This document shows, piece after piece, positions 6,907-16,264 of a stretch of DNA of 16,264 nucleotides (positions within the stretch are counted from its first letter, which is position 1; every line of letters starts with the position of its first letter). The position numbers and the translations under genes are program-made. Below the pieces are notes generated by a model. The model had not been told where the DNA came from, searched no databases, and saw nothing but the letters and a program-made list of their open reading frames with translations. Origin of the DNA: Bdellovibrionota bacterium (GTDB lineage Bacteria > Bdellovibrionota_C > UBA2361 > OMII01); contig JBIKWQ010000076.1 of assembly GCA_044356215.1 (NCBI GenBank), positions 1 to 16,264 on the forward strand. Reading direction: 5' to 3'.

Positions 6907-7061
6907 GAGAAACCCTGGTAAACTTCTGGGAAGGAGCCCCCACTCTGCAATGGTGAGGGGGGTAATCTGCCAGCCCCCTACCCTCCCACGACTTTCTTGA
7001 ACTGGTTGGCACCGTTCTTGACGCCATGCAGAAATGCACATCTTTAGACTACACCGTGACC

Positions 7062-7133
7062 TTGCGTTACTATCTCCGCTTCGCTGACGATTGCCTCTTT
7101 CTTGCCCCTAGTCGGCACGAGCTAGAGGAGCGG
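7062..7133 (+). pseudogene. reverse transcriptase catalytic-motif fragment (DGR/group II-like)
   Basis: LRYYLRFADDCLFLAPSRHELEE resembles the RT domain-5 context (k.YiRYaDDf.il....e.l). Only ~24 codons; other RT domains not found. Confidence 0.65.
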
Positions 7134-7139
7134 CATCTT

Positions 7140-12146: not shown

Positions 12147-12555
12147 TCTTAGGATGCCCCAATGCGCTACACAGTGTCAATTTTTTTCGTAATGTTTCAT
12201 GTATTAAATGCGATTTAGCAAGTACTTTCAATATATTATAGAATCCTATATAATAGTATAAATATGCAGGACAGGCTAGCGCATGGCTCTGGTACGCATT
12301 CATTCAGAGCAAGAGAAGAAGCGCGTTCCTGTTTATAGGTCTCCTTGGTAAAGGCCCGCCAGACGACGCTCCCAAGAGTAACTAGCGGCCTGGAGAGCGG
12401 CGAAAGACTATCATTAGAAAATGGTCCCAACCATGCCTGATGTCGTCGCCTTGTCAAACCAGGTGCCACGATGTGGCGAATCTTTCGGCGCGGCCCCCTA
12501 GCGAAGCTTTTTAGTAAGCACACCCGTGGTTGCTAAGGTGCTTAATCTCCCAGCA

Positions 12556-12803
12556 TTAGCTCCTCTCCTGCTCTGGTATCCCAGTTAAGAGATCAAGAGA
12601 GCTTTCTTGGAGTAACTTGCCGTTGTCGTCAGTCCGCCAGGCGAGGTTATTGTTAAGAAGATATGCGTTGAGGCACTGCCCATCGCGAGCTCTATACACT
12701 ACAGCCATGGTCCGCCCGAACTTGCCCCGCACCTGGCCGGTTCTATCGTAAGCCATTGAGGTGATTACAAGAGGCTCAGCTTTATCAAAAACCCAGGCTT
12801 CAC
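12556..12803 (-). pseudogene. thermonuclease C-terminal fragment
   Basis: EAWVFDKAEPLVITSMAYDRTGQVRGKFGRTMAVVY...CLNAYLLNNNLAW has the KFGR.LA.VY and LN..L motifs; the N-terminal DGDT part is absent. Confidence 0.65.
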
Positions 12804-13004: not shown

Positions 13005-14153
13005 CTATAACCCAATCTCTCGTAAACCCTCTTGCCACGGTAGCGACCAGATCTTGCCGAACTTTCTAGCTGTCTTGCCCATGTGAAACACAAAGGCCCC
13101 CGCTACTTTCCCTTTAAATTGCTCATTGAAGAACCCCAGCCCGGTCAAGTCGTCGGTAACGATGTCATCGCTCGTCTTAACTTCAATCGCGAAGAGCTTG
13201 TTTGAGAGCTCAACGATATAATCAACTTCCAGGCCACCACGGGTTCGAAACGTGGAAACGGTTATATCCTCATCGTGCGCCCATGCGGAATGCACGAGCT
13301 GGTTGAGCACGAGCTGCTCTGCGAGAATTCCAATTCGGTCTCTACTCGCTGTGAAATTGCCCAGCATTCCGTTGGAGACACCGTTGTCGAAGAGGTAAAA
13401 TTTAGGGTGTTTGACGAGATCTATGTCGTGTTCGCGCCCTGTAAAAGGATAAAGTCGGCGTCCAATCATTGAATCCTCCAATATCTCAAAATATCGGGGC
13501 GCCGCATGGCGGGAGATCTTAGCCCTCTGAGCAAGCTTAGTAAGATCGATAAATGTTCCGAGTAAGACGCCAACTTCGCTTAAGAACCGAGCGAATGAGT
13601 TTAGGTCTCTCACTAAGGATTCAGCTTTAATCTCTTCAGCGAGGTAGACACCAGCATATGTTTTAAGTAAACGCTCGGAAAGCTCGCGGCTTTTCTCTAA
13701 GTAGACCTCCGGCAGTGTGCCAACCTCAAGAGCTTTGTTTGTATTTAGCTTGTAGTCCAATTCACTGGCTACAATTGGTCCTAAGTTGTATCGAAGAATC
13801 CTTCCCGGCAGGAGATTCGCTTCACCCCGCCGTAGTTTTCTCGCACTTGACCCGGTGAGGTAGAATTTCAGTCTCCGATTATCATCGATTATCGCTTGAA
13901 TAGAGTTCAATAGTCTGGGCAATCTTTGAATCTCATCAATAAATATCGTCGAACATTCTGAGCCGAGTATGTCATCACGGAATTGCGCCGGGTCTGACGC
14001 GTAGCGAAGGAATTGGGCCTCGTCCGCTAGATTGATTTCAAGCTCGGGCTTGAGAGCCTTGATCAGGGTGGACTTACCAACTTGTCTTGGACCGAGAAGG
14101 AGCACGCTTTTAGGAGATTTTTGCAGAGAGGAACTTAGTAATCGGGATATCAT
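13005..14153 (-). CDS. AAA_14 ATPase with DUF4143 domain
   Basis: LLGPRQVGKST, IFIDEIQR, LTGSSARKL, LLPGR, PKFYLFDNGV, FRTRGGLEVDYIV...AIEVK. Confidence 0.94.
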   Translation of the reverse strand: MISRLLSSSLQKSPKSVLLLGPRQVGKSTLIKALKPELEINLADEAQFLRYASDPAQFRDDILGSECSTIFIDEIQRLPRLLNSIQAIIDDNRRLKFYLTGSSARKLRRGEANLLPGRILRYNLGPIVASELDYKLNTNKALEVGTLPEVYLEKSRELSERLLKTYAGVYLAEEIKAESLVRDLNSFARFLSEVGVLLGTFIDLTKLAQRAKISRHAAPRYFEILEDSMIGRRLYPFTGREHDIDLVKHPKFYLFDNGVSNGMLGNFTASRDRIGILAEQLVLNQLVHSAWAHDEDITVSTFRTRGGLEVDYIVELSNKLFAIEVKTSDDIVTDDLTGLGFFNEQFKGKVAGAFVFHMGKTARKFGKIWSLPWQEGLREIGL

Positions 14154-14182
14154 ATGCTCATTTTTAGCTAAAAATGAGCATA
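14153..14182. promoter_or_regulatory. perfect 30-bp palindrome abutting the ATPase start codon (putative operator)
   Basis: TATGCTCATTTTTAG|CTAAAAATGAGCATA; its first base is the complement of the A of the ATG. Confidence 0.7.
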
Positions 14183-14467
14183 CAGCAAGCGAAATTTTCC
14201 TAGCGGCAGGGCTAGATAGCTGTTATTACATATCAGTATAGCCTGCGTGGGGCAGCAAAGGCAGCTGCCCACATACAGAGTCATGACAAGCCAAAAACGC
14301 TTTCACTACTCCTTCAGACCTCGCCATTTGACTTAAGTCTTTGACTGATGTTTGGGCCGCTAGCACCCTCTTGCTTTGCAGTCAGAGCAATGGAGTAAAT
14401 GTACTTGAATATACGGCGAGGATGTACCAGGGATGGCGATGCTTTTGGTTACGTGTGGTCGCAACCC

Positions 14468-14815
14468 TTAACCGAAAAAGCAACAGTTATCATCATTCCC
14501 AACGATCTCTAATACCTCTTCGATCCTTTTTACCTCTGAGGCTGGGGCGTAGGCGTGCCATTTAAGATCTGCCTTCATCCAATACAGCTTCCAAAGGTCT
14601 CGACTTTTGAAGTAGGTTGCCTTTGCACAGGGGTGATGTTGAATGACTTTCGGATTATCCCATTGTGGTCTGAGCTCAAATATCTCGCTGCTGTAACCTT
14701 TAATATTAGAGCCTAAATCTACCTGAGATCTAACCTGTATCGGGGGTCGGTGGGAGCTCATGAAGGCGGCGATAGCTCTTTCAATGCGCTTCTTTTCGAT
14801 ATCATTAAATGGCAT
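14468..14815 (-). CDS. DUF3024 domain-containing protein (115 aa)
   Basis: MPFNDIEKKRIE...RPP..VRSQVDLG...EIFELRPQWDNP...AKATY.KSRDLWKLYWMKADLKWHAY.P...D..CCFFG. GGAG lies 7 nt before ATG 14815, favouring it over 14941. Confidence 0.85.
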   Translation of the reverse strand: MPFNDIEKKRIERAIAAFMSSHRPPIQVRSQVDLGSNIKGYSSEIFELRPQWDNPKVIQHHPCAKATYFKSRDLWKLYWMKADLKWHAYAPASEVKRIEEVLEIVGNDDNCCFFG

Positions 14816-14836
14816 GTTGGTTCTCCACGTGAAAGT

Positions 14837-14947
14837 GCGGTTGATATAAAGGTGCTTCCGATGAAGAAAGCCGTACCTATCCAAGAGCGGCTCGATGAGA
14901 TCGGACGCATGCTTGGAGGGTGGATGAAGAGCGTTCGGCATAGGTAA
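14837..14947 (+). pseudogene. avd: Avd-like four-helix-bundle protein, C-terminal fragment
   Basis: AVDIKVLPMKKAVPIQERLDEIGRMLGGWMKSVRHR*: EIGRMLGGW is the characteristic last helix of DGR Avd proteins. Stop is 17 nt from the TR; the N-terminal part is replaced by the DUF3024 gene. Confidence 0.75.
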
Positions 14948-14964
14948 AAGGGGGGAGACAGCAG

Positions 14965-15080
14965 TTCCGGGGAGGGAGAGCCAGACGCAGCGACATTGTT
15001 GTCGTTGTCGTCGTCGTACCTGTTGACGTTGACACCGTTGTTGTCATTGGTGTTCAGCGCGAACCCAGGGACAGAGCCGC
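14965..15080 (-). repeat. DGR template repeat (TR), 116 bp
   Basis: Minus strand is rich in AAC/GAC/AAT codons (would read GSVPGFAL-NTNDNNGVNVNRYDDDNDNN-VAASGSPSPE). Identical to 15553-15665 except at adenines and one 3-nt gap. Confidence 0.96.
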
Positions 15081-15500
15081 CCTCTTTGCCCAAGCCCTTA
15101 CGGACCCACCACCGTTTGAGCGCCTTTACGCGTTTCTCACGGTTGAATTTTATTTGGAGAGGTTGTGGTGCCGTTAGCTAAGCTTCACGACCTTGGTATC
15201 GTCCGATACCAACCAGCAAGATCCCCTCACGAGACCTGGACAAGAATTGCTGCTCCCATCACAGTTCTGCACGCTCATTGAATCTAAAAGAGGCGGCTAC
15301 GCCGCCTCTCATCTGGACGCAACGACTCTGGCAGTTCCTGCAAAGTTTACTTTGCAGTTGTTACTGTGGGAACAGCCCTTGGGTGCTAGGAAGCCTTAGC
15401 CGCCTTGTCATTACCCGAGGTAATGTCAAAGATACCATGTCAACGTCTTCAGCTAAAGCTAAAAAAATTTCGATCAAAGCACCAATGATCAAAAACCCAA

Positions 15501-15517
15501 CCCCTCCTTCGGAGGGG
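15501..15517 (-). promoter_or_regulatory. DGR target-recognition hairpin/cruciform (may also act as a terminator)
   Basis: Minus strand CCCCTCC-GAA-GGAGGGG: 7-bp stem, GAA triloop, 23 nt past the target stop, followed by TTGGGTTTTT. Confidence 0.75.
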
Positions 15518-15540
15518 ATCAAGAAATCAATGATCAACTA

Positions 15541-16149
15541 TCAATTTTTTAATTCCGGGGAGGGAGAGCCAGACGCAGCGACATGGCCGAAGCCGACGAC
15601 GCACCCGAAGACGCGGACACCGTAGGAGACATGGGTGCACAGCGCGAACCCAGGGACAGAGCCGCGTACCCAGAAGCCGTCAAACAGGTCTGCTCCTTCA
15701 TGCTTACAAGCATGGATCGCTGCTGCTAGCGCCTGGTCTCTCGGATCGGAGAAAACAAGGGTTTTGGCCTCGAGAACACTTACCTGGGTAGTGCTATTCT
15801 CTCCCTTCGTACCCTTAACTACTCCCGTGATGGTGATCTCCCTAGCTTGCGAGTAGTCCCGCGTCTCACAATGGGCCGGGAATGCTTTAGGCAAATTCTC
15901 AAGCCATTCGAGATCACCCGCATAGATCGCGTCTCTATTGAACTCAGAGTGATTCTTCCTAAAGTACTCATTAAGAGCCTTCATCGCTTCAACATCGGTA
16001 ACGCCGGCGGGAACGGTGAATGTAGAGACTCCCGTATTCTTATCGAATGCGTAGGACTTAACCATCTCTTCCGCTATCTGAAGCGAAGTCTTTTGGGCGG
16101 TGGTGACTCCAGCTGATGTAGACACCTCATCCCCTCTAAGAGCTCGCAA
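15541..16149 (-). CDS. DGR target (variable) protein, family not recognised
   Basis: Open 202-codon frame ending in the VR. Likelier start is GTG 16125, which has AGAGGGG 5 nt upstream. Confidence 0.88.
   Translation of the reverse strand: MRALRGDEVSTSAGVTTAQKTSLQIAEEMVKSYAFDKNTGVSTFTVPAGVTDVEAMKALNEYFRKNHSEFNRDAIYAGDLEWLENLPKAFPAHCETRDYSQAREITITGVVKGTKGENSTTQVSVLEAKTLVFSDPRDQALAAAIHACKHEGADLFDGFWVRGSVPGFALCTHVSYGVRVFGCVVGFGHVAASGSPSPELKN
15553..15665 (-). repeat. DGR variable repeat (VR), 113 bp, at the 3' end of the target gene
   Basis: Encodes GSVPGFAL-CTHVSYGVRVFGCVVGFGH-VAASGSPSPE; 20 substitutions versus the TR, all at TR adenines. Confidence 0.96.
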
Positions 16150-16264
16150 AGGGTAGATTCAACTCCGAAACGCAACACCTAGAATGCGTATCGCATCTAG
16201 GTAGTTATGGAAGATTCAAAAGGACAGTTAGGTGTGGCCGAAAGGCGAGTGATTTGGAAGTATC

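Follow-up and report, generated by a model that had tools for sequence, protein, structure and literature searches.

To our knowledge, no prokaryotic system other than diversity-generating retroelements (DGRs) is known to hypermutate proteins in a targeted way. They are under development as directed-evolution tools. Two of the described systems closest to the locus presented here are introduced first. The DGR of Bordetella phage BPP-1 comprises, in this order, the target gene mtd with the variable repeat (VR), avd, the template repeat (TR) and the reverse transcriptase (RT) gene brt. The second is architecture B3, with the order target-VR-TR-(avd)-RT and an inverted avd, which in the excerpted sections of Wu et al. 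(2018, PMC5758913) makes up 90% of the candidate phyla radiation (CPR) set and hardly occurs in the core set. The stretch of DNA analyzed in this study (the window) is the entire contig JBIKWQ010000076.1 (C64, 16,264 nt) of a Bdellovibrionota draft genome (GCA_044356215.1), which comprises 131 contigs with 3.24 Mb and is 96.5% complete. It contains a TR (14965..15080, minus strand) and a VR (15553..15665, minus strand). These are very likely the repeats of a DGR of the known target-VR-TR-(avd)-RT layout, of which the window holds a non-autonomous copy.

With BPP-1 the locus shares adenine-specific changes from TR to VR and an AAC-rich TR with adenines at codon positions 1 and 2. A GC-rich 3′ flank is common to both repeats and is followed by a VR-specific segment and then by a GC hairpin, in an order like that of BPP-1, and the same Avd and RT families are found in the intact relatives of the window. 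The locus differs from BPP-1 in the gene order, which is VR-avd-TR-RT there and target-VR-TR-(avd)-RT with an inverted avd here, and in the folded RNA, which lies 3′ of the TR there and 5′ of it here. The setting is also different, since this is a freshwater bacterial chromosome, and the window showed no phage genes.

Compared to the B3 loci in the excerpt of Wu et al. (2018), TR, inverted avd and RT have the same order and orientation in further cassettes of this genome (sister cassettes) and in 18 of 30 listed metagenome loci. In-frame length differences between TR and VR beside AAC repeats are found in both as well. Unlike those loci, the host here has a 3.2-Mb genome, related target genes occur in metagenome-assembled genomes (MAGs) labelled Bdellovibrionota, Deltaproteobacteria or Pseudomonadota, and the window itself retains only the TR and a remnant of avd.

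Adenine-confined differences and the target protein

A mechanical repeat search returned the direct repeats D2 (14965-14996 and 15553-15584, 32 nt, 100% identity) and D1 (15009-15080 and 15594-15665, 72 nt, 79% identity), so that the halves of TR and VR are offset by 585-588 nt. For the global alignment of the minus strand, TR 15080..14965 (116 nt) was compared with VR 15665..15553 (113 nt). All 20 substitutions were located at TR adenines (10 A>T, 6 A>G and 4 A>C), and the length difference was a single 3-nt gap within a GAC-AAC run, which is identical to the count given in the initial annotation of this DNA. Not one difference was found over the 87 aligned positions without a TR adenine. By the hypergeometric distribution, a chance placement of all 20 substitutions on adenines has a probability of 2.9e-17 for the 113 aligned positions and of 3.5e-12 for the 55-nt core. 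The VR can be divided into a 5′ flank (15665..15640), a variable core (15639..15585) and a 3′ flank (15584..15553), all on the minus strand. The initial annotation had described identical flanks of 30 and 26 nt. The flanks are real, with lengths corrected to 26 nt (5′) and 32 nt (3′); the length of the 3′ flank changes with the inclusion of AT, which is unchanged in the last AAT codon.

The TR is non-coding, and no Pfam match was found for the open reading frames (ORFs) overlapping it. It contains 28 adenines, of which 26 are in 17 core codons and the other two in the terminal GAA, apart from which the flanks are free of adenine. In the frame of the VR, these 17 codons are seven AAC, two AAT, five GAC and one each of TAC, AGG and ACC. 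Adenines are at codon positions 1 and 2 only, and a stop codon cannot be reached by adenine mutation from any of the 17. The codon table agrees with what had been noted before on the 26 adenines, the 17 codons, the codon positions and the stop codons. In the VR, 20 of the 26 core adenines are changed, two are in the gap and four are unchanged. The theoretical diversity of the VR is 4.5e15 nucleotide variants and 1.9e15 peptides. The number of 4^26 variants proposed at first is arithmetically correct, but it would hold only if an RT-Avd were supplied from elsewhere. Length differences between TR and VR were reported for 25 of 372 DGRs in the excerpt of Wu et al. (2018), 14 of these 25 being multiples of 3 bp, and in-frame differences beside AAC repeats were ascribed there to template slippage.

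The same substitution pattern was found in related cassettes. Over 15 cassettes, the window among them, TR adenines account for 238 of 247 substitutions; L025 (poor alignment), L028 (multiple VRs) and L029 (VR cut by the contig end) were excluded from this count. The share was 22/22 in L019, 16/16 in L024, 14/14 in L031 and 11/11 in L026. In the same genome it was 18/18 both for the sister cassette on contigs C4/C43, where the repeats also show a 6-nt length difference, and for that on contig C123. The non-A variants of the 3′ flank differ among the window, C4/C43, L011 and L022, and each VR matches its own TR. Between the window and the intact metagenome relative L019, 1 of 116 positions differs in the TR, 3 of 340 in the leader, 30 of 486 in the gene body and 19 of 55 in the VR core. 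Outside the gap, 17 of 17 VR differences are at TR-adenine sites. The initial annotation had proposed as a check that variation should be confined to these sites while the TR stays invariant, and this held between the two populations.

The interpretation of the pair as the signature of DGR retrohoming was borne out. It is considered right because a conserved target gene has the VR at its 3′ end and the TR is rich in AAC and does not code for protein, because intact relatives have Avd and a DGR-type RT beside the same TR, because VR/TR pairs share cassette-specific non-A variants, and because between populations the TR is nearly invariant and the VR differs at TR-adenine sites only. What did not stand is a DGR in working order in the window, which has no RT, 36 codons of avd and a target gene that lost its 5′ end. 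For a DGR, such a TR/VR pair is not unusual.

The VR encodes the last ~38 residues of the 5′-truncated target gene (15541..16151, minus strand). Its ORF (16149..15541) is 202 aa in length from a TTG, with the VR at residues 163-199. The entire lectin-like domain is present, whereas ~50 N-terminal residues of the ~250-aa family members are absent. No Pfam or NCBIfam family matched the protein. The 178 homologues found at E ≤ 0.001 are all unnamed metagenome proteins, mostly of ~250 aa, and the runs containing target DNA are lake, river and freshwater metagenomes. For 75 homologues with at least 55% identity over the body, the residue entropy was 2.86 bits at the 17 positions templated by adenine-containing TR codons, compared to 0.60 bits at the 20 other repeat codons and 0.92 bits in the body. 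The observed residues match the codon logic, with D/G/V/A at GAC, Y/F/C/S at TAC and R/G/W at AGG, which is consistent with GNC, TNC and NGG.

The AlphaFold model of the target, built on 89 sequences, has a pLDDT of 90.3 and a pTM of 0.86. Nearly all of the top 50 matches in a VIA-align search are C-type-lectin, FGE (FGE-sulfatase) or Link folds. The best match is the C-terminal domain of Bdellovibrio Bd2740 (Z 6.2, root-mean-square deviation (rmsd) 3.5, 98 aligned). Two known DGR targets with a C-terminal VR, as here, and a lectin-like fold were also among the matches, namely TvpA of Treponema denticola (2y3c; Z 5.7, rmsd 3.9, 129 aligned, 8% sequence identity) and Mtd of BPP-1 (1yu0; Z 5.3, rmsd 3.8, 109 aligned). 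The Z values of 5-6.2 are below the caution line of 8 of the tool, and for this reason the fold is called lectin-like and is not proven; the domain is predicted to have a binding role. The gene immediately upstream of the target codes for a small membrane protein with a DnaJ (J) domain at its C-terminus, both in two sister cassettes (L004 2575-2916, L007 4236-4754) and in the intact relative (L019 2686-3213).

Intact relatives and sister cassettes

Relatives of the cassette were collected by a metagenome scan with the Avd of C123, which found 124 relatives; 80 of these were kept and layout results are available for the first 30. In 18 of these 30 loci, the RT is head-to-head with avd, and a divergent RT/avd pair with a TR after avd is also present in L011. 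In the closer loci, a T-rich repeat was found at most ~20 nt after avd, with a partner 520-620 nt further on (start to start). Full-length RTs of 345-363 aa with the motifs IGNLTSQ and FADD are encoded beside the same TR in L020, L026, L028, L030 and L033. We take IGNxxSQ to be a mark of DGR RTs. The best solved relative of the RT fragment is the 328-aa RT 8ub7_A (E 9e-21), presumably the BPP-1 enzyme, which ranks ahead of group II RTs. The layout in the intact relatives is target-VR-TR-(avd)-RT, which is architecture B3. An inverted avd between TR and RT was found in C123, in C43 together with C12, in L011 and in the 18 loci mentioned above, and the window keeps its TR and avd remnant in this orientation.

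Related TR/VR DNA is located on the contigs C4, C43, C123 and C33 of the same genome, corresponding to three sister cassettes. C33, C4, C43 and C12 are joined in this order by exact end overlaps. The C4 target (L005 1613-7792) is a protein of 2059 aa without a Pfam family above cut-off, and it ends in the same lectin-like domain with its own VR. The diversified domain therefore also serves as the tip of a giant protein. Behind the TR of C4/C43, ~5 kb of inserted genes include another DUF3024/ATPase pair. These are followed by the first 60 codons of avd and then by an RT that ends after motif 4, before the FADD motif (C43/C12). The target on C123 has 207 aa, and its avd is of full length (NCBIfam DivGenRetAVD 83.7 bits, cut-off 80; Pfam bAvd 67.8 bits, cut-off 40). 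On C33, a 286-aa target and a second VR-like remnant were found; no A-rich TR was seen there. As judged by eye, the other two RT genes in the genome resemble RTs of group II introns.

At least three targets of the genome thus have a TR copy each. Multiple targets per genome, some of them far from any TR, are also described in the available text of Wu et al. (2018), whereas in such multi-target DGRs one TR is shared. A TR search in 11 genome loci with the target family detected a TR in L011 only. The other 10 loci are without a TR on the fetched DNA, although in 5 of these it reaches at least ~5 kb to both sides. They may be remote targets or incomplete contigs. The Avd family was identified in 12 of 41 related genomes (including that of the window), and 7 of the 24 genomes within the same genus contain it. 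Two genomes of this genus contain partial avd matches only (G003, C14:23135-23248, profile positions 67-104; G006, C76:137-343, profile positions 38-104), and DGR cassettes in a broken state may be frequent in this group.

Template RNA and elements downstream of the variable repeat

For the 472-nt interval between VR and TR, RNAalifold predicted 68 pairs from 16 cassettes, 27 of them with compensatory changes. In this consensus fold, 94.8% of the cells are paired. The 27 pairs (84 cells) changed on both sides compare to 5-14 pairs (6-21 cells) when the partners are slid by 1-3 columns, and none of 500 shuffles reached the observed pairing values. Helices 2-11 of the fold form a structured leader of the template RNA (15086..15407, minus strand), with an 8-bp stem and its tetraloop near 15210-15190.

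A long-range helix connects this leader with the TR. Its 5′ strand (15244..15257, minus strand) forms base pairs with the TR 3′ end together with the next 11 nt (14967..14954). The latter strand belongs to a post-TR motif with a pyrimidine/U run (14945..14967, minus strand), which is conserved in 15 of 15 aligned cassettes. Over the 15 sequences, 89.5% of the cells pair in this helix, compared to 41-53% in slid positions; 3 of the 14 pairs changed on both sides, and the G-U pairs fit this strand only. The helix is recovered in the minimum free energy (MFE) fold of the window RNA alone. The leader strand continues straight into helix 9, in which 15243..15232 pairs with 15097..15086, the 12 nt just upstream of the TR. 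Therefore one leader strand holds both ends of the TR, first the 3′ end and then the upstream side. In all 15 sequences, an A opposite a C (15247 with 14964) stays unpaired at a distance of three pairs from the TR-side end of the helix; it is a candidate functional nucleotide.

In the BPP-1 ribonucleoprotein (RNP), with its Template:primer duplex and cPRT Stop duplex, the spacer segments Sp 47-56 and Sp 59-70 pair with the TR 3′ end and then upstream, according to the available part of Handa et al. (bioRxiv 10.1101/2023.10.23.563531). The looping-out of the TR between two adjacent duplexes on one strand is similar to that predicted here, with duplex lengths of 14 and 12 bp in the window and 10 and 11 bp in BPP-1. 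In contrast, the strand in question is the spacer 3′ of the TR in BPP-1 and lies ~165 nt 5′ of the TR here, so that the connectivity is permuted. Furthermore, the adenosine described in that part of the work as the priming Sp A56 has no adenosine as its equivalent here; the invariant A opposite a C is three pairs inside the helix.

In the 190 nt downstream of the TR (antisense avd), 0 consensus pairs were found in 15 sequences, and there is no evidence for a BPP-1-like spacer RNA in this segment. A search of 14700-15800 against Rfam 15 (4227 families, E ≤ 1) returned only a chance match to PinT (E 0.32), and the loci L019, L020, L026 and L011 gave no matches. The BPP-1-type DGR RNA (RT-10) and the other RT motifs, as named in the excerpt of Weinberg et al. 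(2017), had no Rfam match here. A description of a scaffold 5′ of the TR did not turn up in narrow word searches of the literature, which carry no claim of its absence from print.

The VR is followed by a segment (15518..15552, minus strand) that differs from the sequence after the TR and is conserved in distant cassettes. It contains the stop codon and four TTGAT repeats spaced by 7-8 nt. From its position and sequence, it may be an element of the initiation of mutagenic homing (IMH) type. Several columns of the TTGAT region are invariant even in cassettes with an Avd of 53-64% identity, and similar TTGATC/TTGG boxes are located after the hairpin (15470-15495, minus strand). The boxes could be a protein-binding array or a homing signal. 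The GC-rich hairpin itself (15501..15517, minus strand; helix 1 of the alignment fold) was also detected by a terminator scan and has a 7-bp stem, a GAA loop and a T-rich tail. In the alignment fold, two of the four pairs of helix 1 are compensatory. It looks terminator-like and is at the position of the BPP-1-type post-VR hairpin. Insertions of 30-60 nt in the hairpin loop are present in C123 (L004 3700-3790) and C4 (L005 7820-7860), and the C4 leader has an insertion of ~200 nt (L005 8130-8330); the window and L019 are free of these insertions.

In the intact element, the RNA from the strand with the TR adenines would consist of a folded leader of ~330 nt, the TR and a short tail. The leader strand would pair with the 3′ end of the TR and, immediately beside it, with the sequence upstream of the TR, and since both TR flanks would be held by one strand, the TR would be looped out. 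RT and Avd would then copy the TR into cDNA with random bases opposite the adenines. This cDNA would replace the VR and rewrite up to 17 codons in the C-terminal strands of the lectin-like binding domain. The template RNA is predicted to end at the U run and to recruit RT-Avd. The adenine-only pattern, the match of each VR to its own TR, the contrast of a nearly invariant TR with a hypervariable VR among populations and the conserved fold of the RNA are shown by the data; we infer the ends of the transcript and the chemistry of priming, as well as the role in binding.

The window copy and competing explanations

In the window, the gene of the template RNA is complete, leader through U run. The protein genes are not. 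No RT domain was detected in the 24 window ORFs scanned. With the full-length RT of L020, tblastn identified scraps of a DGR-type RT at 7022..7134 (plus strand), which correspond to residues ~38-52 and ~210-238 in different frames and form no gene, the second stretch including the FADD motif; 51 nt of them are identical to L019. The scraps are 7 kb away from the TR/VR pair and adjoin an AbiEi gene, and another scrap is located on contig C99. The avd remnant (14837..14947, plus strand, opposite to the TR) comprises the last 36 codons and the stop codon. In tblastn, 14837-14944 matches residues 81-116 of the L019 Avd with 35 of 36 identical, and the homology breaks off at 14837/14838. The homology to L019 as a whole covers exactly 14838-16151 with 95.7% identity over 1317 nt.

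On its left side, this block is bordered by a DUF3024 gene and an AAA_14/DUF4143 ATPase gene. On the right, a multi-copy repeat (16152..16264, strand not assigned) replaces the 5′ end of the target (first ~50 codons) and ends the contig. These 113 nt are 100% identical to the ends of C10, C11, C30, C99 (both ends), C124 and C126 and are the end of a multi-copy element, probably an insertion sequence with its body outside the bin. The in-frame sequence upstream of target residue 1 contains stops and has no homology to the target family. A genome search for the missing target part with the L019 upstream DNA matched only the neighbouring J-domain gene (C33, C123).

The DUF3024 gene followed by the ATPase gene abuts a truncated avd both in the window (13005-14815, minus strand) and on C43 (L006 3445-5256), with 92% identity of the DUF3024 parts, and a piece of the ATPase 3′ end is also found directly after the truncated RT on C12. 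The two genes may form a mobile module that has entered DGR cassettes repeatedly. A C-terminal fragment of a nuclease gene (12548-12791) matches the full gene on C43 (2202-2687) with 96% identity, another sign of scrambling between the regions. The rest of the contig (2512-12146) is an island of defence and toxin-antitoxin genes, which encode a homologue of staphylococcal nuclease, a fusion of an AEP-TOTE primase to DUF4096, two AbiEii/AbiEi pairs and a Fic/DOC protein, besides a second AAA_14/DUF4143 ATPase.

The window copy is whole in its template RNA gene, its VR and its lectin-like domain and is without an RT. Its avd was very likely cut to 36 codons by a rearrangement beside the DUF3024/ATPase pair, and the target 5′ end was lost to the multi-copy repeat. 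Since such a copy is non-autonomous, its VR records past retrohoming, and a further diversification would need RT-Avd from another cassette.

Several points weigh against this reading. DGR activity, past or present, is something we infer from the DNA, as no RT, cDNA or transcript was observed. An intact DGR RT was not assembled in the draft of 131 contigs, which has no contig below 2534 nt, and the RT on C123, the one full cassette, runs for its first ~40 codons to the contig end. With a draft of this kind and a contig floor of 2.5 kb, "no intact RT" is to be read as "none assembled", and an intact RT may have been lost from the bin because of that floor. The long-range helix was spotted by eye in the same sequences from which its pairing was counted, which gives it a bias over the slid controls. 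For the template RNA, 0 sigma-70-like promoter sites were found in 14700-16264. Regarding the target, the fold matches stay below the caution line, and Foldseek found nothing at E ≤ 0.001 against the PDB with the target model. The contigs of four public lake or freshwater runs over 14400-16264 are short unitigs, none of which spans the stretch. The longest piece of the target gene stops at 15634-15648 in all four, in or just inside the VR 5′ flank, and these contigs are too fragmented to reveal VR polymorphism within a sample.

The organism may be without a working DGR RT, in which case the cassette would be a dead relic and the adenine-only pattern would stem from the last retrohoming before decay. 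This is a plausible explanation, if not quite a probable one. All assembled DGR RT sequence is broken or cut (before FADD on C43/C12, as scraps in the window and on C99, at the contig end on C123). In addition, avd is truncated in the window and on C43, the target is interrupted by the repeat, and G003 and G006 of the same genus have partial avd remnants. On the other hand, not a single difference has accumulated over the 87 aligned non-A positions. Leader and TR are 99% identical to the intact relative, so that any decay would be recent, and with contigs below 2.5 kb missing, an intact RT between repeats could be lost from the bin.

The opposite explanation is that the RT-Avd of the sister cassette on C123 recognises the complete leader-TR RNA of the window and is still rewriting the VR in trans. 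This can be held only tentatively. It would be consistent with the whole template RNA gene, with the absence of any non-A mismatch between TR and VR, with the full avd and the RT start retained on C123, and with the 10 of 11 target-family loci without a TR on the fetched DNA. Remote targets as well as the function of avd, TR and brt from a plasmid in trans are reported in the excerpt of Wu et al. (2018). However, the RT on C123 is readable for ~40 codons only, its leader is 87% identical to that of the window, and the 5′-truncated target of the window may not be expressed.

It is improbable that the window represents an ordinary complete cassette whose breakpoints are chimeric joins in a metagenome bin. 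The draft of 131 contigs does break at these repeats, and contigs of other populations continue from 14836 into a full-length avd and from 16151 into the normal target N-terminus of the family (read by eye). In contrast, contigs of run X1, which may be the source sample, are identical to the window on both sides. Record 3 of X1 (14644-14865, 0 differences) extends 28 nt past the avd breakpoint and record 7 (15643-16180, 0 differences) 29 nt into the repeat, both just below the bridging rule of 31 nt. Moreover, the same DUF3024/ATPase pair adjoins the second broken avd on C43. An ordinary segmental duplication with neutral divergence, suggested by two direct repeats 588 nt apart, has a negligible chance and is ruled out by the substitution spectrum, as 20 of 20 differences affect adenines of a single copy (P 1e-12 or less), the same pattern recurs in 14 other cassettes and one copy is coding while the other is non-coding.

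For the non-autonomous DGR copy preferred here, a more far-reaching interpretation can be outlined, which we regard as rather unlikely to hold in full. The template RNA of this DGR lineage might be a self-contained, circularly permuted form of the BPP-1 DGR RNA, with the scaffold strand 5′ of the template and not 3′, an end at the U run behind the closing helix and nothing needed from the avd/RT side. TR-VR modules without an RT could then be written in trans, and one RT-Avd could serve several modules, each with its own TR, in a non-CPR, possibly predatory freshwater bacterium.

If the leader is the RT-recruiting part on the other side of the template, the RNA requirements known from BPP-1 would be achievable by a different connectivity. 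This, if true, would bear on the finding and reprogramming of DGRs. The locus adds a target family of ~250 aa without a Pfam or NCBIfam match, with a lectin-like model and 178 homologues, whose domain also ends a protein of 2059 aa. It adds the inverted-avd layout outside the candidate-phyla bacteria in which it has been catalogued. Finally, it adds a natural case in which the gene of the template RNA is whole and the neighbouring protein genes are destroyed.

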